64,000 bases of DNA from Myxococcales bacterium (GTDB taxonomy: Bacteria; Myxococcota_A; Polyangia; Polyangiales; GCA-016699535), in assembly GCA_020633325.1 (NCBI GenBank), contig JACKDX010000001.1:178179-242178 (forward strand). The letters run 5' to 3'. A program made the translations under genes and the position numbers. Shown one piece after another: positions 8,309 to 45,061 of the stretch (within the stretch, counting starts at the first letter, position 1; every line of letters starts with the position of its first letter). The notes under the pieces are model-generated. The model was given only the letters and a program-made list of their open reading frames with translations, was not told the origin of the DNA and made no database searches.

Positions 8309-8680
8309 TCAGCTTTTCGATGCGCGCGCTTCCTCTGCAAGTGCCTCGTATTGGCACTTGATGTCATCAAGGTCTTTATTCGAGAGCTCTTCCAGATCCA
8401 AAAGAGAATTTTTGGCGGATTTGCTCGCGCGGATTAACTCATCAAGCTTGAGATGCACGGCTTCGCTGTCCCGATTTTGGGTGTTTTGGATAAGAAAGAC
8501 CATCAAGAACGTTACAATCGTGGTCGCGGTGTTGATGACCAGCTGCCAGGTGTCCCCAAAACCAAACAAAGGACCACTGAGAGCCCAAAGAAGCACGGCG
8601 GTAAACGCCACGCCAAAGCTCGCAGGGTGCCCCATGGCCCGCGATGCGGCTTTTGCAACCCTGGTAAAGATGTCACGCAT
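8309..8680 (-). CDS. low-affinity iron permease family membrane protein
   Basis: GDTWQLVINTATTIVTFLMVFLIQNTQNRDSEAVHLKLDELI is typical of this family. Confidence 0.65.
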   Translation of the reverse strand: MRDIFTRVAKAASRAMGHPASFGVAFTAVLLWALSGPLFGFGDTWQLVINTATTIVTFLMVFLIQNTQNRDSEAVHLKLDELIRASKSAKNSLLDLEELSNKDLDDIKCQYEALAEEARASKS

Positions 8681-9127
8681 GAGCGCTAGTATATCTATGA
8701 AACCTTCCCGTCCAAGGGGGAAATGCCCGTAATGGGGTACTCGGCAGCCCGGCTCGGGGCCCTCTTGTCCCGTTCGGGGATGATGCCGGCAGCGTGTGGC
8801 CTATGCCGTGCCTGGGCGGGACTAGACCTGTGGCCCAGTTCCCGGAGGCGCCTTGACCTCAGAGCCTAGTTTCGATCCTAGGTGAGGACACGTGTTCCCA
8901 CCGGTAGGGAGAGGGGGGCAGTTTGACCACACTGCGGTCTCACTTGCGCGGCACCCAAGGACCACGGGATACGGAACCGCTCCACAGGCTAACTTGCGCT
9001 AATTGTTTTGAAATCATATGGTTTGCGCCATCGTTTGATTGGCGACGGAAATGGGATCGATATTTGCTTACATGTATAAGGTGGGGATAAGAGTCATCGG
9101 GGGAAGGCACACGGACGTACCTTGCAA

Positions 9128-9817
9128 ATGAACGCATTCACGACTAAGTCTCTGGCTGTGACCAACGCGATCAAGGGCCCCGTAGCGGCGATGTTCCTGC
9201 TGCTTGCCTCTTCCACCGCGGTCGCTCAGGGTACAAGCATGATCGACCTTGAGAGCGCGCGCGAGCAGCTGCGCTACGAACCCAAGGTCGCTGAAGTGGT
9301 GCGCAAGTGTCTCGAGTACTTCCGCGTGAGCCCGGAGAATTTCGATGACATGAGGCGTGCGGCACGTCAGCGCGCCGCGCTTCCTCTTCTTGCAGGCGGC
9401 TACCGCTTTGACGTGGACGACTTCGCCCGAAAGGAACAGCAGCAAATCACAGCCCCTCGCCGCAACGAGGAGGACACCCAGAGGCAGGCCCATGCATTTA
9501 CCATTGGTGCCGTCTGGGACTTACGCGAGCTCGTATTCAATCCGGCTGAAGTCCAAGTTTACGGCATCATCGGCGTGCAGCGCGACCTTTTGCTTGAGGC
9601 GACCAGGACCTACTATTTGCGTCGGCAGCTACTGTTACGCCTTTTGTTGCGACCCCCTGAAGATGAGGTGGCGCGCGAAGCACTCAATCTTCGTATCGAT
9701 GAGTTTACGGCGCTCCTCGACGTCTTGACCGGTGGCTGGTTTACACGCACCACTGAGGTACGATCGCGGAAAACGAAAATGCAAGGCGCCGCCGCCCCAA
9801 GTAGCCAAGCACGCTAA
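9128..9817 (+). CDS. secreted protein of unknown function
   Basis: ORF 9122..9817, ATG at 9128. Signal peptide AAMFLLLASSTAVAQG. Confidence 0.45.
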   Translation: MNAFTTKSLAVTNAIKGPVAAMFLLLASSTAVAQGTSMIDLESAREQLRYEPKVAEVVRKCLEYFRVSPENFDDMRRAARQRAALPLLAGGYRFDVDDFARKEQQQITAPRRNEEDTQRQAHAFTIGAVWDLRELVFNPAEVQVYGIIGVQRDLLLEATRTYYLRRQLLLRLLLRPPEDEVAREALNLRIDEFTALLDVLTGGWFTRTTEVRSRKTKMQGAAAPSSQAR

Positions 9818-9836
9818 CGGCTGCTCTGAGATTGGC

Positions 9837-10946
9837 ATGAAGCAGTATTGGTTACTCAACCCAGGTCCCGTTAATACGACGGCTACGGTGAAACAAGCCG
9901 CACTCGCTGCAGATCTCTGTCATCGTGAACCGGAGTACAGCGCCCTCATGACCGAGGTGCGCCATAAGCTTTTGGAAGCCACCGGCATTGGCACCAAGGG
10001 CTATCAGACGGCCCTCATTGCGGGATCTGGCACCGCGGCGCTCGAGCTGTCCATCGCTTCCATTGTGCGGCCTCAACGCAAGCTTCTCGTGCTCAACAAT
10101 GGCGTCTATGGAGCACGACTCCTAAAAATGGCCCAAGCGCATGGCATCGATTGTAGAGATATCACCTCTCCCTGGCATCAGCCCCCCAGCGTCGATGCCG
10201 TCGAGCACGTCCTCAGGGAAGACGCCTCGGTTGATGCCGTTGCCTTGGTGCACCATGAAACCACTACGGGGCTCTTAAATCCCGTCGAGGCCATTGGAAG
10301 GCTTGCGAGGCGCTACGACAAAGTGTTTTTTCTCGATTCTGTCTCTGGGCTCGGGGGAGAGACTTTGGACATAGACGGATGGGGCGTGGATTTGGTAGCT
10401 GCGACCGCCAACAAATGCTTGCACGGGCTTCCCGGCGTTGCGTTCGTACTCGCCTCTGATCGGGGGCGTGCGCATGTCGCTGAGGTGCCGCCGCGCTCGG
10501 TTTACTTCGATTTACGCAATTATCTCGAGCAACAAGAGGCAGGAGCTGTGCCATTTACGCCATGCATCTCGGGCACATACACGCTTCTTCAGGCGCTCGA
10601 CGAGCTTGAGGCTGAAGGGGGAATCTCTCAGCGCATTGCTACGTACAGAGAGCGCTCAAGCTTGATCCGCCGTGAGTTTCAGGCACTGGGGCTAAGTCTG
10701 TATCTTGATGAAGCGTTGCTCTCAAATAGCATTACAACCTTTAAGCTGCCCAAAGGGCTCAGTTATGTATCGCTCCATGAGCGGCTCAAGCAGGAGGGGT
10801 TTGTCATTTACGCTGGACAGGGCAAGCTCGAGCATGAAGTATTCCGCATCGCTAACATGGGTCATGTGCCCATGGAGATCTATGTCAAGCTCGTAGATGC
10901 TTTACGCCACGTGTTACGCGATATCCAAAGCGTTGCCACCATATAG
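9837..10946 (+). CDS. phnW: class-V aminotransferase, 2-aminoethylphosphonate:pyruvate transaminase (PhnW)-like
   Basis: MKQYWLLNPGPVNTT, GSGTAALE, HHETTTGLLNP, the NKCLHGLPG PLP-lysine region and EGG..R..Y resemble Pseudomonas PhnW. The ORF-track 5' extension (9732-9836) overlaps the upstream gene and was dropped. Confidence 0.7.
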   Translation: MKQYWLLNPGPVNTTATVKQAALAADLCHREPEYSALMTEVRHKLLEATGIGTKGYQTALIAGSGTAALELSIASIVRPQRKLLVLNNGVYGARLLKMAQAHGIDCRDITSPWHQPPSVDAVEHVLREDASVDAVALVHHETTTGLLNPVEAIGRLARRYDKVFFLDSVSGLGGETLDIDGWGVDLVAATANKCLHGLPGVAFVLASDRGRAHVAEVPPRSVYFDLRNYLEQQEAGAVPFTPCISGTYTLLQALDELEAEGGISQRIATYRERSSLIRREFQALGLSLYLDEALLSNSITTFKLPKGLSYVSLHERLKQEGFVIYAGQGKLEHEVFRIANMGHVPMEIYVKLVDALRHVLRDIQSVATI

Positions 10947-11692
10947 AGATTGGCAATGACTACGGCAAACACCCAATAGCCAAGGTAGGCACGAGGCCAT
11001 GCTCCTATGCATAAGGCCGCTATCATCATGAGAAAATGATGGTGGGTGGGACCGACCCACTGCACACGTCGAAAACATAAATATCCCCCTGGGCAGCTCG
11101 AGCCCGTGGAGCGCTGCATCCAACGGACGTAGCTCACCAAAAGCGCGTAGCTCACCCTATCAAAAGCGTTCTTGGGTTCACTGGCGAAAGAGCCCAAGGT
11201 GTTATCGATAGAGCCCCGTTTGAGCCGCTGCTTGAGGTTGTCGACGACAGCGCTGTGCCACATAAAACTCGCGCCCGCAGGAAGAAAGATCACCAGCCAC
11301 TCGAAGGTCTTAGGCGTGTAGCCGAAGACTGAGATGCCGCTGCGGCCGAGGTGCACGACCATGCCAATGAGCACGCTAAATGCCGTCACTCCGTCTGCCA
11401 AGCCGTCAAAGATGCGGCCCCGCCAGTCCCCGCCTCCGTAACGACGCGCAAGCTCGCCATCGACGCAATCAAAGACCATCGCGAAGAAAAACAAACATCC
11501 GCCCAAGACGGGCCAGGGAAGCGGCGCTGCGTAGAACACGCCCGTGATGACGCCGAGGGCAGCCGTAAATAACGTCACTTGGTTGGCGGTGATGCCTCGA
11601 GGCCCGAGCCTTCGCGCGATCCAGCGGCCCAGGGGGCGACAGATGGCGGCATCCAACACCTCATCACGCACCGGCGCTTTCAGTCCGCGCAT
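10880..11692 (-). CDS. CDP-alcohol phosphatidyltransferase family membrane protein
   Basis: DCVDGELARRYGGGDWRGRIFDGLAD fits D-x2-DG-x2-AR-x8-G-x3-D-x3-D. Multi-pass hydrophobic protein. Confidence 0.8.
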   Translation of the reverse strand: MRGLKAPVRDEVLDAAICRPLGRWIARRLGPRGITANQVTLFTAALGVITGVFYAAPLPWPVLGGCLFFFAMVFDCVDGELARRYGGGDWRGRIFDGLADGVTAFSVLIGMVVHLGRSGISVFGYTPKTFEWLVIFLPAGASFMWHSAVVDNLKQRLKRGSIDNTLGSFASEPKNAFDRVSYALLVSYVRWMQRSTGSSCPGGYLCFRRVQWVGPTHHHFLMMIAALCIGAWPRAYLGYWVFAVVIANLYMVATLWISRNTWRKASTSLT

Positions 11693-12432
11693 GCGGCTTC
11701 CTTTTCCAGGGCCGGCGCAATCACCTCGCGCGCTCGAGTTAAGTCCTCTTCAAAGTCAATTTCCGTCCACGAGAAATCGTCGGCGCGCTCAACGCCCACA
11801 TGAACCACTTGGAAAAAGCGGTTAATCGCCGCTTCGTATTCGCTGTCTTTGCCGAACCCGACTTCAGTATCGTCGATGACCGTACGCAATAACGGCACAT
11901 CGTGACGACAGACCTTGAAGAAACCGACAGATTCTCCAATAAGATCATATGACTGAGAGGGATCCAATCTGCGCGCGATGGCTATGGCACGTCCTTTAGA
12001 GACGCCAATCATCATCTCTTCGCCGGTCTCAGAGGAGCGCGTATCGACCAACGCGCAATTGGGATAGCTGCTATCGCGAAGACGCATGAATAGACCGGGA
12101 CCATAGTATACATCGGCATCCATAAAAATGAGATCGTCGTCTCGAAGGGCACCTAGCGCGGACTTAAGCGAAAGCAAAGAGCCATGCCTGTAATCGGGGT
12201 TAAATACCCAGTCGATGGGGCGTGCAAAGGGAAGCTCTAGGACAGCCTTGCGCAGCATCTCAGATTGATGCCCCGTCACTATGGTGATGTGATCGATGCC
12301 TGCATGCTGATACGTACGGAGGTGCCTCTCAAGAAGCGATTCTTCAGCCACTTTTAACAAACACTTGGGAAGCGTTTCGGTGTAAGGAGCCAGGCGTTTT
12401 CCCATGCCGGCCGCCAATAAGACGACCTGCAT
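11680..12432 (-). CDS. LicC/PntC-like nucleotidyltransferase (cytidylyltransferase family)
   Basis: MQVVLLAAGMGKRLAPYTETLPKCLL has the canonical GxGxR. The ATG at 12432 shares one base with the upstream stop (TGATG). Confidence 0.7.
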   Translation of the reverse strand: MQVVLLAAGMGKRLAPYTETLPKCLLKVAEESLLERHLRTYQHAGIDHITIVTGHQSEMLRKAVLELPFARPIDWVFNPDYRHGSLLSLKSALGALRDDDLIFMDADVYYGPGLFMRLRDSSYPNCALVDTRSSETGEEMMIGVSKGRAIAIARRLDPSQSYDLIGESVGFFKVCRHDVPLLRTVIDDTEVGFGKDSEYEAAINRFFQVVHVGVERADDFSWTEIDFEEDLTRAREVIAPALEKEAACAD

Positions 12433-14144
12433 CAGCGCAATGAGGCCCAGACGCGTTTGTAATCGTCGAAGCTCCCGATCTCTGTCCATCCTTTATAGAT
12501 ATCGACCGCATGAACATCGCCGCCCTGATCCACGATGTCCTGTAAGACATCTGTGAGTTTGGCATCCTGAACACGCTCGGCTTCGTGATAGGGTTTTGCT
12601 GCGGGTTTCTTTAGCGCCGAATGCCAAGACTCTCTGAATATGCGGCAACCATGTTCGGTAAGCATCATCATGCCTACAAACTCTCCACTAGCCTTGTCCG
12701 GCTGAATCGAGGTGCCAATTTGCGTCACGCGACTCGGTGCATCAGAAGTGAAAAATCGGTCCGTAGCCTTATCCGCCCTGGGTACATCCAAGCTGACCAA
12801 GTCACGCTTACTATGGTCGGATCGCTCTGTGACCGACCTATCCACTGCGATGGTAATATCAGAGGGTGAGCGCAGTAATTTCTCCAAAACGCTGCGCTCA
12901 AAGAGCACATCTCCATAAAGCACTACCACGCGTTTGCTTAGCTCCTTGTCGGCCTTGAAAAGACTGACGGCCTCGCCCGTGTCTTTATAGTCATCATTGT
13001 CGTAGGTGCGAATATTTGGGACATCAATGCGATCTTTAAGATAACCCCGCACCACCACAATATCTTTAATGCTACAGCTATTGAGGACCTCGATCTGTCG
13101 CTCTAAAAGCGTCTTTCCGCGGATATCCAACATGGCACGGGGCCGATCCTCGATGAGCGTGCCCAGCTCAGCTTCATAGCCGGCATCCAAAATGACTGCA
13201 GTGATCGCGGCGCCATCTGCAGGCAAGTATGCCTTCTCCTCCGCCTTCATGGTGGAGACGCCTATGATTTCATAGACGTCGGTAAGCGGAACGACCATAT
13301 CATCGACGGATCCGGTCGAACCCGCTTTACGCATGGTGCTCAGCGTGTGTCGCATCGCTTTGATGGAGCTTCTGATGGCATGATTCGCACAAATAATGAG
13401 CTTAAAGCCTGCCTCGTGAAGTTGGGCCACGGTTGCAGTCTTGTAGGTAGTCGGCACGCAGACCAACGGTGTGTCGCGATCCCATTGCTTGGCAAAGCTT
13501 AGAATCTCGTCGGGTGTCTCGGACTTGGAGTGAATCAGCACCATGTCGGCGCCCGCATCCGCATAACTGCGCGCACGCTTGAGCGACTCATCCATGCCCC
13601 ATCCAGCGATCAACGCTTCTGTACGCGCAATCACCGCGAAATCTGATGAGCGTCGCGTATCAAGAATGGCGCGGATCTTACCCGCGTGTTCTTCGATCGT
13701 GGCAAGTTCCCGCTTGACGCCCGCGTAGAAAGAACAGCGCTTAGGAAAACTGTTATCTTCGATGCAAACGGCCGCCACTCCGGCCGCTTCGTACTGCCGG
13801 ACCATGTGAATCACGTTGATAGCGTTTCCGTAGCCGTTGTCGCAGTCAGCAATCACTGGGATATCCGTGGCTTCCACCATTTGGCGGGCATATCCGAGGT
13901 TGTCAGCCATGGTGAGAATATTGGCGTCGGGAATGCCGTAGCTTGCGGAGATCTCAAAACCGCTGGCCCAAACCCCGTCGTAGCCTGCCTCTTTGACCAG
14001 TTTGGCCGATAGGCCACTATGGGCGCCCGCGATGACGATTGGTCCGGACGCTTTGAGTAACTGACGAAGCTTCGTTGCACCTTGCATACTACCACCTAGA
14101 TTAGGCCGGCTGGCCGGCCGAAGTTGAGCCAAGGAGGATGACAC
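12432..14144 (-). CDS. PEP-mutase-like (ICL/PEPM superfamily) domain fused to a C-terminal degenerate nucleotidyltransferase domain
   Basis: Aligns along its whole length with Mytilus PEP mutase as recalled (DCDNGYG, IARTEALIAGWG, LIHSK, EKAYLP), but the active-site loop is EDNSFPKRCS. The C-terminal half has an NTP_transferase-like fold starting AVILDAGYEAELG. The likely start is the ATG at 14087, with GGTGG upstream. Confidence 0.7.
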   Translation of the reverse strand: MSSSLAQLRPASRPNLGGSMQGATKLRQLLKASGPIVIAGAHSGLSAKLVKEAGYDGVWASGFEISASYGIPDANILTMADNLGYARQMVEATDIPVIADCDNGYGNAINVIHMVRQYEAAGVAAVCIEDNSFPKRCSFYAGVKRELATIEEHAGKIRAILDTRRSSDFAVIARTEALIAGWGMDESLKRARSYADAGADMVLIHSKSETPDEILSFAKQWDRDTPLVCVPTTYKTATVAQLHEAGFKLIICANHAIRSSIKAMRHTLSTMRKAGSTGSVDDMVVPLTDVYEIIGVSTMKAEEKAYLPADGAAITAVILDAGYEAELGTLIEDRPRAMLDIRGKTLLERQIEVLNSCSIKDIVVVRGYLKDRIDVPNIRTYDNDDYKDTGEAVSLFKADKELSKRVVVLYGDVLFERSVLEKLLRSPSDITIAVDRSVTERSDHSKRDLVSLDVPRADKATDRFFTSDAPSRVTQIGTSIQPDKASGEFVGMMMLTEHGCRIFRESWHSALKKPAAKPYHEAERVQDAKLTDVLQDIVDQGGDVHAVDIYKGWTEIGSFDDYKRVWASLR

Positions 14145-14188: not shown

Positions 14189-14941
14189 CTAAAGAGTTTT
14201 CACCGCACCCGCTATCAAGCCGCTTTCAATGAAGCCCGGCAGCCGCTCGCACAACCCTGTCACGCGCCCAGCTGATAGAGGCAGCTTCTGTGTTTTAAAC
14301 GCATGCTCGATGCCTTCTTTGGCAGACCAGTCAGGATGCGCCAGCCACACTTCGATCACTTCTCGCTCGAGCGGGTCTAAAGCCACCGTCTCGACCTTTT
14401 GCGTGCGTGCATTCCGAAACACTCCCAACACCCACTGGCATGCGCCATAGCAAGAAGCCTCATCCAGATGATGTACGGCGTGACCGACTTCTAAGACGCG
14501 AAGCGTAGGATTGACATAGGCGGGACGATCGAAAGCAAAGTCTGCTGTCGCTTTTGGAAGGCCAGCTTTTTGATCCGCCACAGACCAACACGTCGCCTCG
14601 TAACGTAAAAGGTCGCGCGCCACGCGCGGCACATCCGCCGCGTCTTTCCATTGTATCTCGAGGTGTTCGGCAAACTCTACTACAACGTCTCGAATGTATC
14701 GGCTGACCGGGCCGGTCTCATGGAGATACCGCGCCATGTGCTCAGAGAATACCGCGGGCCCCAGCACTCGCTCCGTCCTCGGCAGGCCTCGGCGAATCAT
14801 GTCACATAGTCTATGACGTACCATGGCGCGATAAAGCGCCCACGATGACAGGGAAGCAGCGGGCGCATCAGCATGCTCTATGTCTGGATGTTTGGTAAGA
14901 CATAGCTCGGCAATTCGCTTCTGTTGTGAGTCCAAGCTCAT
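14189..14941 (-). CDS. DUF2063-family protein, putative MNIO partner (BufC/HvfC/MbnC-like role)
   Basis: LYRAMVRHRLCDMIRRGLPRTERVLGPAVFSEHMARYL pattern. The start overlaps the MNIO stop (ATGA at 14938-14941). Confidence 0.6.
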   Translation of the reverse strand: MSLDSQQKRIAELCLTKHPDIEHADAPAASLSSWALYRAMVRHRLCDMIRRGLPRTERVLGPAVFSEHMARYLHETGPVSRYIRDVVVEFAEHLEIQWKDAADVPRVARDLLRYEATCWSVADQKAGLPKATADFAFDRPAYVNPTLRVLEVGHAVHHLDEASCYGACQWVLGVFRNARTQKVETVALDPLEREVIEVWLAHPDWSAKEGIEHAFKTQKLPLSAGRVTGLCERLPGFIESGLIAGAVKTL

Positions 14942-15810
14942 AAAGATTTCGTAATTACCGATGCTTCGACCTTAAAAACCGTTGCGTAGATATCCTGAAG
15001 ACGATGAATTTCTTGCACAAGCAGGGAGAACGCAGGAAACTTTTCATCGCGCTCCAAAAGAACGGGCTTCGGCCCAAGACGCCTAAGTGCGTAATCCAAA
15101 AGCGCATAGACAGGCTCTATGATGGGCTCTGCATGGGTATCGATGATGGGACCATTTTTTTGGGTAAGGTGGCCCGCAACATGAAGCTGGGCCACGCGGT
15201 GTTTTGGAATACGGTCAATGTAGGCATACGGATCAAAGCCATGATTGACGCTGTTAACATACACGTTATTAACATCCAACAGTATCAATGCATCAGCTCT
15301 ATCGACGACCTGTAAAAGAAACTCGACTTCGGACATCGTGGGCGGACTCAAGTTGGCGTAATAGCTGACATTCTCGATAGCGATCGGACATTCTACGGCG
15401 TCCCTTAACTCTCGAACGCGGGCTACAGCGGTGAGTATCGCATCTTCAGTAAAAGGTAACGGCAACAGCTCATGCAATATGCGGCCATTGGCTTCCGTAA
15501 AGCATAAGTGCTCGCTATGCCAAGGCGCGCGAATGTCGCGGGCCAAAAACTGGCGCAGTTGCGCAGTGTACCTGGGATCAAAGCGCTGGCTATTTCCGAG
15601 CCCCAAGGTCAAGCCATGGGTCAAAAGGGGCCAACGCGCGAGCGCGTGCTCCAAGATGTTGGCGTAGCGTCCACCGCGCTCTAGGTAATTCTCCGGATGA
15701 ATTTCCAGAAACTTCAGGCCATCGGGCGGAGCATCAAACAAATCGTTCGCTAGCGGATAGCGAAGCCCCAGCCCTATCCCGTTAAGGCGTTCGTTTCGAG
15801 GAGCCGCCAT
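14938..15810 (-). CDS. DUF692 / multinuclear non-heme iron oxidase (MNIO, MbnB/BufB-like) family protein
   Basis: GIGLGLRYPL...FLEIHPENY, THGL, WHSEHLCF, IENVS, LLDVNNVY, LHVAGH, IDTH and LERD. Confidence 0.75.
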   Translation of the reverse strand: MAAPRNERLNGIGLGLRYPLANDLFDAPPDGLKFLEIHPENYLERGGRYANILEHALARWPLLTHGLTLGLGNSQRFDPRYTAQLRQFLARDIRAPWHSEHLCFTEANGRILHELLPLPFTEDAILTAVARVRELRDAVECPIAIENVSYYANLSPPTMSEVEFLLQVVDRADALILLDVNNVYVNSVNHGFDPYAYIDRIPKHRVAQLHVAGHLTQKNGPIIDTHAEPIIEPVYALLDYALRRLGPKPVLLERDEKFPAFSLLVQEIHRLQDIYATVFKVEASVITKSL

Positions 15811-15834
15811 AGATTTGCCTGCGGGTTAAACTGA

Positions 15835-15869
15835 TACATCCGTGCCCGCGCGCGGCGGATACGGATGTA
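15835..15869 (-). promoter_or_regulatory. intercistronic stem-loop between the precursor ORF and the MNIO gene
   Basis: Perfect 9-bp inverted repeat TACATCCGT / ACGGATGTA flanks a GC-only core containing the palindrome CCGCGCGCGG. It lies about 25 nt after the precursor stop codon. Confidence 0.4.
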
Positions 15870-15893
15870 CCTGACCGAGCATGATACAAAAAC

Positions 15894-16136
15894 CTACTGA
15901 GCTTCTTCAGCTGCCGGCGCCTCACCCTCGTTCATCGCGCCACAAGAACCAGCTCCGCAGGAGCCTTCTGCTGCGCCTTCTTCCATGGCAGCACCCTGAG
16001 CGCCCGGAGCGGGGGTCGCTTCCGCACCAGTGGTTGTTTCAGTCGATGCGGCGTCGTCAGCACTGTCGCCACAACCAATCCCCGCTAGGCCGAATGCCGC
16101 GGTTGCCATCACGATAAGCTTGTTCTTCATATCCAT
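15894..16136 (-). CDS. 80-aa putative RiPP precursor with signal/lipobox peptide and EGSCGAGSCGA core
   Basis: GGAGG lies 9 nt upstream of the ATG at 16136. Sequence: MDMKNKLIVMATAAFGLAGIGC|GDSADD...EGSCGAGSCGAMNEGEAPAAEEAQ. It sits directly upstream of the MNIO gene on the same strand. Confidence 0.6.
   Translation of the reverse strand: MDMKNKLIVMATAAFGLAGIGCGDSADDAASTETTTGAEATPAPGAQGAAMEEGAAEGSCGAGSCGAMNEGEAPAAEEAQ

Positions 16137-17938: not shown

Positions 17939-18010
<72 letters not shown>

Positions 18011-44974: not shown

Positions 44975-45061
<87 letters not shown>

Follow-up and report, generated by a model that had tools for sequence, protein, structure and literature searches.

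The four genes at positions 9837-14087 of a 64,000-nucleotide stretch from a Myxococcales bacterium (assembly GCA_020633325.1, contig JACKDX010000001.1, forward-strand positions 178,179 to 242,178; the whole stretch is hereafter called the window) constitute a phosphonolipid head-group module in an uncultured Polyangiales-like myxobacterium. The genes are intact and tightly packed, and encode a phosphoenolpyruvate (PEP) mutase-like/nucleotidyltransferase fusion (551 aa; 12432-14087, minus strand), a stand-alone PntC-type cytidylyltransferase designated NT2 (250 aa; 11680-12432, minus strand), a membrane protein of the CDP-alcohol phosphotransferase family (270 aa; 10880-11692, minus strand), and a class V aminotransferase of the PhnW/AepZ type (369 aa; 9837-10946, plus strand). 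The module type itself is already known; the version in the window stands out by the Cys-for-Asn clade to which its mutase-like domain belongs and by a layout that lacks phosphonopyruvate decarboxylase (Ppd). Either a Ppd gene lies in another part of the genome, or the pathway runs without that step. On comparative sequence evidence, roughly an even chance is given to the reading favoured here, namely that a classical 2-aminoethylphosphonate (AEP) head group is activated as its cytidine monophosphate derivative (CMP-AEP) and moved to a lipid, with Ppd acting in trans.

The first-pass annotation of this DNA had reported that no thiamine pyrophosphate (TPP)-dependent decarboxylase is encoded anywhere in the window, and three kinds of search agreed with it. 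Ppd alpha and beta subunits from relatives gave nothing at E<=10 when compared with the 64-kb window by tblastn, and the best match of Ppd-alpha and Ppd-beta profiles to all six-frame segments of the window (hmmsearch --max) had an E value of 0.22. Pfam recognized no TPP enzyme and no other decarboxylase among the genes called in the 10 kb around the cluster or among 20 of the 21 open reading frames (ORFs) of at least 250 aa listed for 22-64 kb. The ORFs scanned belong to housekeeping, pilus, and cell-envelope families (DnaJ, GyrB, UvrD, FtsK, a Mur ligase, and the like), and a few have no Pfam match. Of the components of the classical AEP cluster (Ppm, Ppd, and AEPT), Ppd was not found within the 64 kb.

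Gene neighbourhoods of 80 species-level relatives were compared, the readable range comprising the window and 10-kb flanks. Domains of the relatives were mapped by tblastn, a gene picker based on G+C content at third codon positions (GC3) was used for the high-GC Sorangium loci, and the Ppd-linkage counts for two loci (L046 and L051) were read jointly from the ORF survey and the tblastn domain map. A split Ppd lies directly after the fusion in about 60 of the 74 informative loci, which are those with enough sequence downstream of the fusion, and within 10 kb in 4 more. These Ppd-like ORFs match the families TIGR03297 (Ppd) and TIGR03845/6 (sulfopyruvate decarboxylase alpha/beta) and carry TPP_enzyme_N and TPP_enzyme_C domains; in many of the loci, genes for a PhnW-type transaminase, NT2, and a CDP-alcohol phosphotransferase come next. 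Since Ppd directly follows the fusion in so many relatives, the fusion clade is, judged by context, a phosphonate clade, and the Cys-variant fusions that make it up would belong to a real phosphonate pathway. A sulfonate reading (sulfopyruvate decarboxylase/taurine) was also considered, and was dropped because the Ppd model outscores the sulfopyruvate model for both the beta subunit and the fused form and because a CMP-activated sulfonate is unsuited to a CDP-alcohol phosphotransferase.

The arrangement of the window recurs in two other genomes, which is more than chance: in L001, whose fusion is 84% identical, and in L083 (71%), the latter being CP064980.1, a 4.02-Mb contig of a Myxococcales metagenome-assembled genome (MAG). 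L083 and the window also share SLT, FtsX, and amidase genes and a peptide cluster (described below) as neighbours. The L083 contig is smaller and lower in G+C than the Sorangium chromosomes of 11-16 Mb on which the Ppd-containing cluster is found. At L002, a Polyangiales MAG, the order is fusion, two small genes, Ppd-alpha, Ppd-beta, NT2, CDP-alcohol phosphotransferase, and convergent transaminase. In two metagenome loci (P0005 and P0134) the order is fusion, PpdAB, NT2, and CDP-alcohol phosphotransferase; the transaminase of P0134 is convergent, and that of P0005 is found several genes further along. A Phosphodiest (PF01663) gene, which is absent from the window cluster, lies beside the convergent transaminase at these two loci.

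Neighbour-joining gave one and the same topology, (L002, (L083, (L001, window))), for the fusion, the transaminase, and NT2; of these four, L002 has Ppd and the other three do not. The agreement of the three trees and the Ppd-bearing sister L002 indicate vertical inheritance, with the Ppd genes lost once on the branch leading to L083, L001, and the window, so that the Ppd-less layout of the window is a derived state, retained by all three. Regain of Ppd by L002 through transfer was considered and dropped, as the pairwise identities fit vertical descent. Within the Ppd-less clade, proportions of synonymous differences (pS) were 0.75-0.89, i.e. synonymous sites are saturated, proportions of nonsynonymous differences (pN) were 0.07-0.28, and no stops were present; the pN/pS value of NT2 relative to L001 is a frame artefact and was disregarded. 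By these measures the loss of Ppd is old and the Ppd-less layout has been kept under strong purifying selection.

The mutase-like domain of the fusion (13203-14087, minus strand) is the most conserved part of the cluster, with 89% identity to L001 (pN 0.069, pS 0.79) and 77% to L083 (pN 0.15, pS 0.75). Such constraint suggests that phosphonopyruvate is probably still made by the window enzyme, in which case something must consume it. The same conservation is hard to square with a lost catalytic role, as would apply if the cluster served salvage or remodelling, with NT2 and the CDP-alcohol phosphotransferase activating AEP taken from the environment or from prey, the transaminase interconverting AEP and phosphonoacetaldehyde, and the mutase domain otherwise employed. 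PhnW-type enzymes are reversible and also catabolic, and the window transaminase gene lies on the opposite strand, outside the operon, both of which suit salvage; for a diatom, it has been proposed that AEP from outside is cytidylylated and built into lipid (PMC9765203). No phosphonate transporter or phosphonatase was found among the called neighbours, however, and salvage is considered quite improbable.

The mutase domain had been described as PepM-like in the first-pass annotation, together with a fused nucleotidyltransferase. The family of the former and the domain identity of the latter stand; what had been overlooked was that the mutase domain departs from the canonical signature and that the nucleotidyltransferase has an atypical nucleotide-binding loop. 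The gating loop, identified from the translation and from alignment to solved PEP mutases, reads EDNSFPKRCS (13731-13760, minus strand), compared with EDKRFPKVNS in 5UNC, EDKLFPKTNS in 1M1B, and EDKTFPKDTS in the phosphonopyruvate hydrolase 2DUA. In Mytilus numbering, Lys116 is replaced by Asn, Thr121 by Arg, and Asn122 by Cys. The fusion matches PF13714 (5e-61) and PF12804 (2e-10) in Pfam, and its top-scoring NCBIfam family is TIGR02320 (PEP_mutase). The best solved relative of the mutase domain is the PEP mutase 5UNC (1.5e-94; 321 bits), followed by 1M1B at 234 bits, and no lyase exceeds 122 bits. At the active-site positions Asp58, Asp85, Asp87, Glu114, Lys120, Ser123, Arg159, and His190 of Mytilus PepM, the window domain has the same residue throughout when aligned by HMMER with 1M1B and 5UNC.

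The loop variant is shared by a large clade. The pattern ED[NSA]xFPKxCS is present in 119 of the 120 best homologues, the remaining one having Arg at the Cys position, and in all 80 fusion sequences, window included. When representatives of 50%-identity clusters were searched exhaustively, the seven nearest were all Cys variants, and the best 150 comprised about 22 Cys variants, 90 canonical sequences, and 14 of the form EDN..NS. Stand-alone proteins of about 300 aa also occur in the Cys-for-Asn clade (among P0001-P0120 and P0235-P0384). Published phosphonate inventories define PEP mutase by an EDKX5NS filter (PMC6697681, PMC8942020, PMC12723261), which in the work of Rice et al. removed 22 fused sequences (PMC6697681), and the window mutase domain is thus a member of a clade that motif-filtered inventories drop. 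One marine survey accepts PepMs with up to two motif residues missing if Ppd is adjacent (bioRxiv 10.1101/2020.11.04.368217). A literature search found nothing specific on AEP or phosphonolipids in myxobacteria, nor on the Cys-variant motif.

The loop could also be read as the mark of a lyase- or hydrolase-type enzyme, in which case the cluster would build a phosphate-ester head group and no phosphonate. The catalytic cysteine of the lyase branch sits at the aligned loop position, and KRCS recalls the KRCGH loop of the isocitrate-lyase branch. Moreover, the EDKX5NS signature is absent, the scores for PEP mutase (TIGR02320; 294.8 bits, cut-off 319.55) and phosphonopyruvate hydrolase (TIGR02321; 268.8 bits) are both below their cut-offs, and PGAP labels the homologues only as 'isocitrate lyase/PEP mutase family protein'. 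Set against this are the bit scores given above, which are far higher for solved PEP mutases than for any lyase, the retention of the remaining aligned active-site residues, and the acceptance of PepMs lacking up to two motif residues beside Ppd in the marine survey. Above all, Ppd-like TPP genes directly follow the Cys-variant fusion in most of the informative loci, and PhnW-type transaminases are present in many, which makes a lyase or hydrolase unlikely. Of the three options offered by the first-pass annotation (Ppd elsewhere, direct transamination of the keto acid, or no classical AEP pathway), the last, if taken to mean that no phosphonate is made, accordingly appears unlikely, and the phosphate-ester reading in the form given here is left with a very slight chance.

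The two nucleotidyltransferases differ in their nucleotide-binding loops. The C-terminal domain of the fusion (NT1, MobA/LicC-like; 12432-13202, minus strand) has LicC (1JYK) as its best solved relative at 3.6e-12, and its loop reads AGYEAEL (13110-13202, minus strand) compared with AGLGTRL in LicC, two acidic residues replacing GTR; the loop is not of the PntC type. Other canonical PepM-fused nucleotidyltransferase domains mostly have an AA[SG][RK]G loop, and within the Cys-variant clade the second glycine is commonly replaced by an acidic residue. NT1 may be non-catalytic, auxiliary, or of different specificity. NT2 matches NTP_transf_3/NTP_transferase in Pfam (PF12804, 1.3e-15), in agreement with the gene call, and its loop, LLAAGMGKRL, is canonical and of the PntC type. 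Its best solved relative is the AEP cytidylyltransferase Tde-PntC (6PD1/6PD2), with a full-length alignment at 1.2e-15, in which NT2 Glu200 aligns with Tde Glu196 and NT2 Asp105 with Tde Glu104, Asp being the residue found in LicC. In the Tde-PntC structure, Glu196 contacts the AEP amine (PMC6697681). With a standard loop in NT2 and an atypical one in NT1, we infer that NT2 is the better candidate for a working AEP cytidylyltransferase, and the unusual NT1 loop may account for the constant presence of another nucleotidyltransferase in these clusters.

The CDP-alcohol phosphotransferase is a member of its family by Pfam (CDP-OH_P_transf, PF01066, 7e-11, above the cut-off). It has the motif DxxDGxxARx8GxxxDxxxD exactly, at residues 75-100, and at least five hydrophobic segments, and it matches phosphatidylinositol and phosphatidylinositol phosphate (PI/PIP) synthases, AF2299, and choline/ethanolamine phosphotransferase weakly. 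The likeness of NT2 to Tde-PntC and this exact motif support the earlier expectation that a cytidylyl-activated head group is transferred to a lipid or another hydroxyl acceptor. The plus-strand gene product is assigned to Aminotran_5 by Pfam. Its best NCBIfam family is TIGR03301 (PhnW-AepZ), the cut-off of which is narrowly missed (344.1 versus 360.8 bits); TIGR02326 is also below cut-off (275.5 versus 400.8). Among solved structures, PhnW (1M32) is the best relative at 1.5e-64, and 9KK8, 7E7G, and the aminotransferase domain of Tde1415 are also matched. The ANKC segment aligns with ANKC of PhnW, presumably the Schiff-base Lys site, and FRIAN with FRIGN, presumably part of the C-terminal Arg site FRI(A/G)N; both sites are conserved.

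Besides the nucleotidyltransferases, this transaminase is the only candidate in cis for consuming phosphonopyruvate in the window clade. It might aminate phosphonopyruvate to phosphonoalanine, which would then be cytidylylated and put on a lipid to yield an analogue of phosphatidylserine with a phosphono group. The transamination would pull the unfavourable mutase equilibrium, and the product might later be decarboxylated to an AEP lipid. Conservation of the Ppd-less layout with its transaminase in three genomes under purifying selection would fit this route, and PepM with an aminotransferase and no Ppd is known, PalB-type enzymes accounting for 9.2% of ppm neighbourhoods and leading to phosphonoalamides (PMC8942020). 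However, the known phosphonopyruvate transaminases are of the Aminotran_1_2 family and not of the class V PhnW family, and the window transaminase is a vertical orthologue of those in Ppd clusters (58% identity to L002, same tree). In addition, neither a phosphatidylserine-decarboxylase-like gene nor a pyridoxal phosphate (PLP)-decarboxylase gene was found among the window genes scanned by Pfam. The phosphonoalanine route is considered rather unlikely.

Clade-specific changes, scored at positions at least 85% conserved in Ppd-linked homologues, bear on the same choice. Those in the transaminase are A243C, A249T/S, and R269T/L. The first two lie just past the loop aligned with FTSPTH of PhnW, which counts for amination of phosphonopyruvate; there are only these three, however, and none affects the residues aligned with PhnW ANKC and FRIGN. 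Those in NT2 are L60Y and L128Y/F. Position 128 follows DADV of the conserved DAD loop and aligns with Tde-PntC Ile108, and its change next to that loop likewise counts for phosphonoalanine, but the new residues are bulkier, not smaller, though phosphonoalanine exceeds AEP in size. The CDP-alcohol phosphotransferase has one clade-specific change, which is also present in L002. None of the changes is clearly within a substrate pocket. Their small number suggests that the retained enzymes handle the same substrates as in Ppd-containing clusters, which mildly favors Ppd in trans.

Other relatives have pathway genes that are dispersed. The Sorangium loci (L008-L018, L022, and L065) have the order fusion, PpdA, PpdB, and NT2, with no PhnW-type transaminase within 10 kb; in L008, the sole Sorangium locus checked in this respect, the next gene lies on the opposite strand and encodes, divergently, a CDP-alcohol phosphotransferase of about 390 aa. 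In Sorangium, either the transaminase is encoded elsewhere or the head group is not AEP. Three loci (L019, L021, and L023) comprise fusion, NT2, and CDP-alcohol phosphotransferase, with neither Ppd nor transaminase, and three others (L054, L056, and L057) the fusion alone. Dispersal of this kind favors a Ppd encoded in trans. At L084, a 599-aa protein with Aminotran_5 and NTP_transferase/NTP_transf_3 domains (8567-10366) directly follows PpdAB, an architecture that recalls Tde1415 of T. denticola.

Under the favoured reading, that of a classical AEP lipid with Ppd in trans, the ancestral cluster would have consisted of the fusion, Ppd-alpha, Ppd-beta, PntC, CDP-alcohol phosphotransferase, and perhaps the transaminase, and both Ppd genes would have been lost. 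The variant-motif mutase domain, judged by homology and the Ppd linkage of its relatives, would convert PEP to phosphonopyruvate, which a Ppd presumed to be encoded outside the window would decarboxylate to phosphonoacetaldehyde. The PhnW-type transaminase would then form AEP, as its orthology suggests, NT2 would use cytidine triphosphate (CTP) to convert AEP to CMP-AEP, as predicted from its similarity to Tde-PntC, and the CDP-alcohol phosphotransferase, by its family and context, would transfer the phosphonyl head group from CMP-AEP to diacylglycerol or another lipid alcohol.

Several observations weigh against this pathway. Ppd was found neither in the 64-kb window nor within 10 kb of the L001 and L083 clusters, and both Ppd-beta homologues inspected on long contigs of relatives adjoin a fusion, so that no orphan Ppd was seen there. 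The Ppd-less layout has been stable over a deep divergence, with pS saturated, while the transaminase was kept in cis, a pattern that is also expected of a Ppd-independent pathway. The mutase domain lacks the canonical PepM signature EDKxxxxxNS and scores below the TIGR02320 cut-off, and no assay of any member of the Cys-variant clade was found in the literature. None of the 234 candidates of a word-indexed search with L002 Ppd-beta came from the genomes of the window, L001, or L083; since Ppd genes known from Sorangium were missed as well, this search is given no weight. The lack of Ppd in cis in three related genomes would also be explained by decarboxylation through a non-homologous, non-TPP enzyme encoded elsewhere, and non-orthologous displacement is common after such losses. 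Nevertheless, the neighbourhood shared by the window and L083 contains no candidate, we know of no non-TPP phosphonopyruvate decarboxylase, and this explanation is rated highly improbable.

The structure of the locus was also examined at the level of its junctions. The gene identities proposed in the first-pass annotation (a mutase/nucleotidyltransferase fusion, a LicC/PntC-like enzyme, a CDP-alcohol transferase, and a PhnW-like transaminase) are borne out by Pfam, NCBIfam, and solved relatives, and the operon coupling and convergence that it described were read again from the sequence. The fusion and NT2 genes are joined by a TGATG stop/start overlap (12430-12434, minus strand), exactly where the two Ppd subunit genes of the relatives are located. 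The last 13 nt of NT2, including its stop, are shared with the beginning of the CDP-alcohol phosphotransferase gene (11680-11692, minus strand). That gene and the convergent transaminase gene run into each other over 67 nt at their 3' ends (10880-10946, plus/minus strands); the corresponding junction in L083 is a 49-nt overlap (13173-13221). Two coordinates were corrected. NT2 starts at 12432, and the end of the block at 14144, which is the GTG start of the maximal ORF (570 aa), was rejected; the extended form had no database match. The likeliest start of the fusion is the ATG at 14087, which has GGTGG 5 nt upstream as a ribosome-binding site. It gives the 551-aa product, taken to be the real one, that is identical to database protein P0001 and equal in length to the closest homologues. 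The gene called in L081 begins at this ATG, and the protein is also called in this form on a 383-kb European Nucleotide Archive (ENA) contig.

Rfam matched only two tRNA genes in the window, both away from the operon (17939-18010 and 44978-45061, both minus strand), and thus neither a riboswitch nor any other RNA element close to it; a promoter/terminator scan gave promoter signals not above background. The G+C content of the window is about 55%. The gene 19 nt upstream of the transaminase (9122-9817, plus strand) encodes a protein of about 230 aa that matches nothing in Pfam and apparently has a signal peptide at its N-terminus; a homologue adjoins the transaminase in L001, and none does so in L083. 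Directly upstream of the fusion is a three-gene MNIO-type cluster for a ribosomally synthesized and post-translationally modified peptide (RiPP) at 14189-16130 (minus strand), which is syntenic in L083 and resembles the HvfABC/bufferin metal-binding peptide systems. It encodes a lipoprotein-like precursor of 78 aa with the sequence EGSCGAGSCGA (15894-16130, minus strand), an MbnB_TglH_ChrH enzyme (14938-15810, minus strand), and an HvfC_N protein (14189-14941, minus strand).

Because the clade fails EDKX5NS yet is mostly Ppd-linked, inventories probably undercount phosphonate producers, and those in Myxococcota, Planctomycetota, Acidobacteriota, and other phyla are probably affected. The window represents a stable sub-lineage that amounts to a natural experiment on the need for Ppd, with the mutase, transaminase, cytidylyltransferase, and lipid transferase kept and Ppd dropped. 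Should the genome contain Ppd at another site, the cluster would be of the ordinary AEP-lipid kind, with a single gene moved away; should the whole genome lack it, the locus would mark an early branch point not described before, possibly with a phosphonolipid head group that is new as well. The joint claim that a class V transaminase has been recruited to a Ppd-independent phosphonoalanine-lipid pathway, which would be a carbon-phosphorus (C-P) analogue of the phosphatidylserine route, and that the Cys-for-Asn clade is a genuine, widespread C-P-forming family is judged unlikely.

Several known systems resemble parts of the module. In IPCT/DIPPS and the Kennedy-type choline/ethanolamine phosphotransferases, a cytidylyltransferase is likewise paired with a CDP-alcohol phosphotransferase; the similarity is distant and at family level only (E 1e-3 to 1e-14), with weak matches of NCBIfam NF041135 to NT2 and the transferase and of CEPT1 (8GYW) to the transferase, and the transferred group is a phosphate ester there and would be a phosphonate here. 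Fom1 of fosfomycin biosynthesis, as cited in PMC6697681, sets a precedent for PepM being active while joined to a nucleotidyltransferase whose substrate is a later pathway intermediate. It resembles the window fusion in having a cytidylyltransferase and PepM in one protein, but its cytidylyltransferase is an N-terminal domain of PF01467 with hydroxyethylphosphonate as substrate, whereas that of the window is a C-terminal domain of PF12804 with an atypical loop. AEP-specific PntC enzymes, including Tde-PntC (Tde1415), were described by Rice et al. 2019 (PMC6697681). Tde-PntC resembles NT2 in its full-length alignment and in the amine-contacting Glu196, and the aminotransferase domain of Tde1415 matches the window transaminase at 168 bits; Tde1415 differs in that its nucleotidyltransferase is fused to a transaminase and not to a mutase, in Glu104, which is Asp in NT2, and in its other downstream transferases.

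The PalB phosphonoalanine branch resembles the window in having PepM and an aminotransferase with no Ppd in the neighbourhood, but PalB-type enzymes are Aminotran_1_2 (PF00155) and the window enzyme is a class V PhnW orthologue. In the branch-point scheme of Li and Horsman, Ppm with Aminotran_5 and without Ppd fits none of the seven classes (PMC8942020), and their motif filter would have dropped the window locus anyway. The closest described architecture, compared here by its description, is Burkholderiales_CDP-OH, which comprises a Ppm-PntC fusion, Ppd, AEPT, an oxygenase, a second PntC, and two phospholipid genes (PMC8942020); it corresponds to the Group 1 phosphonolipids of Yu et al. 2013 in the account given by Li & Horsman 2022 (PMC8942020). 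It shares with the window the Ppm-PntC fusion, the second PntC, the AEP transaminase, and the CDP-alcohol-type phospholipid genes, and in both cases the predicted phosphonolipid product has never been isolated; it differs in having Ppd and an alpha-ketoglutarate oxygenase and in passing EDKX5NS, whereas the window has neither gene and reads EDNSFPKRCS. The Cys-variant clusters of Polyangiales, Planctomycetota, and Acidobacteriota (e.g. L002, Sorangium L008-L018, P0005, and P0134) have an orthologous fusion with 58-72% identity. They differ from the window, L001, and L083 in having Ppd-alpha and Ppd-beta between the fusion and NT2, and are like the window in the ED[NSA]xFPKxCS loop, in NT2, and often in the CDP-alcohol phosphotransferase and transaminase; L002 and P0134 also match it in gene order and in the convergent transaminase.

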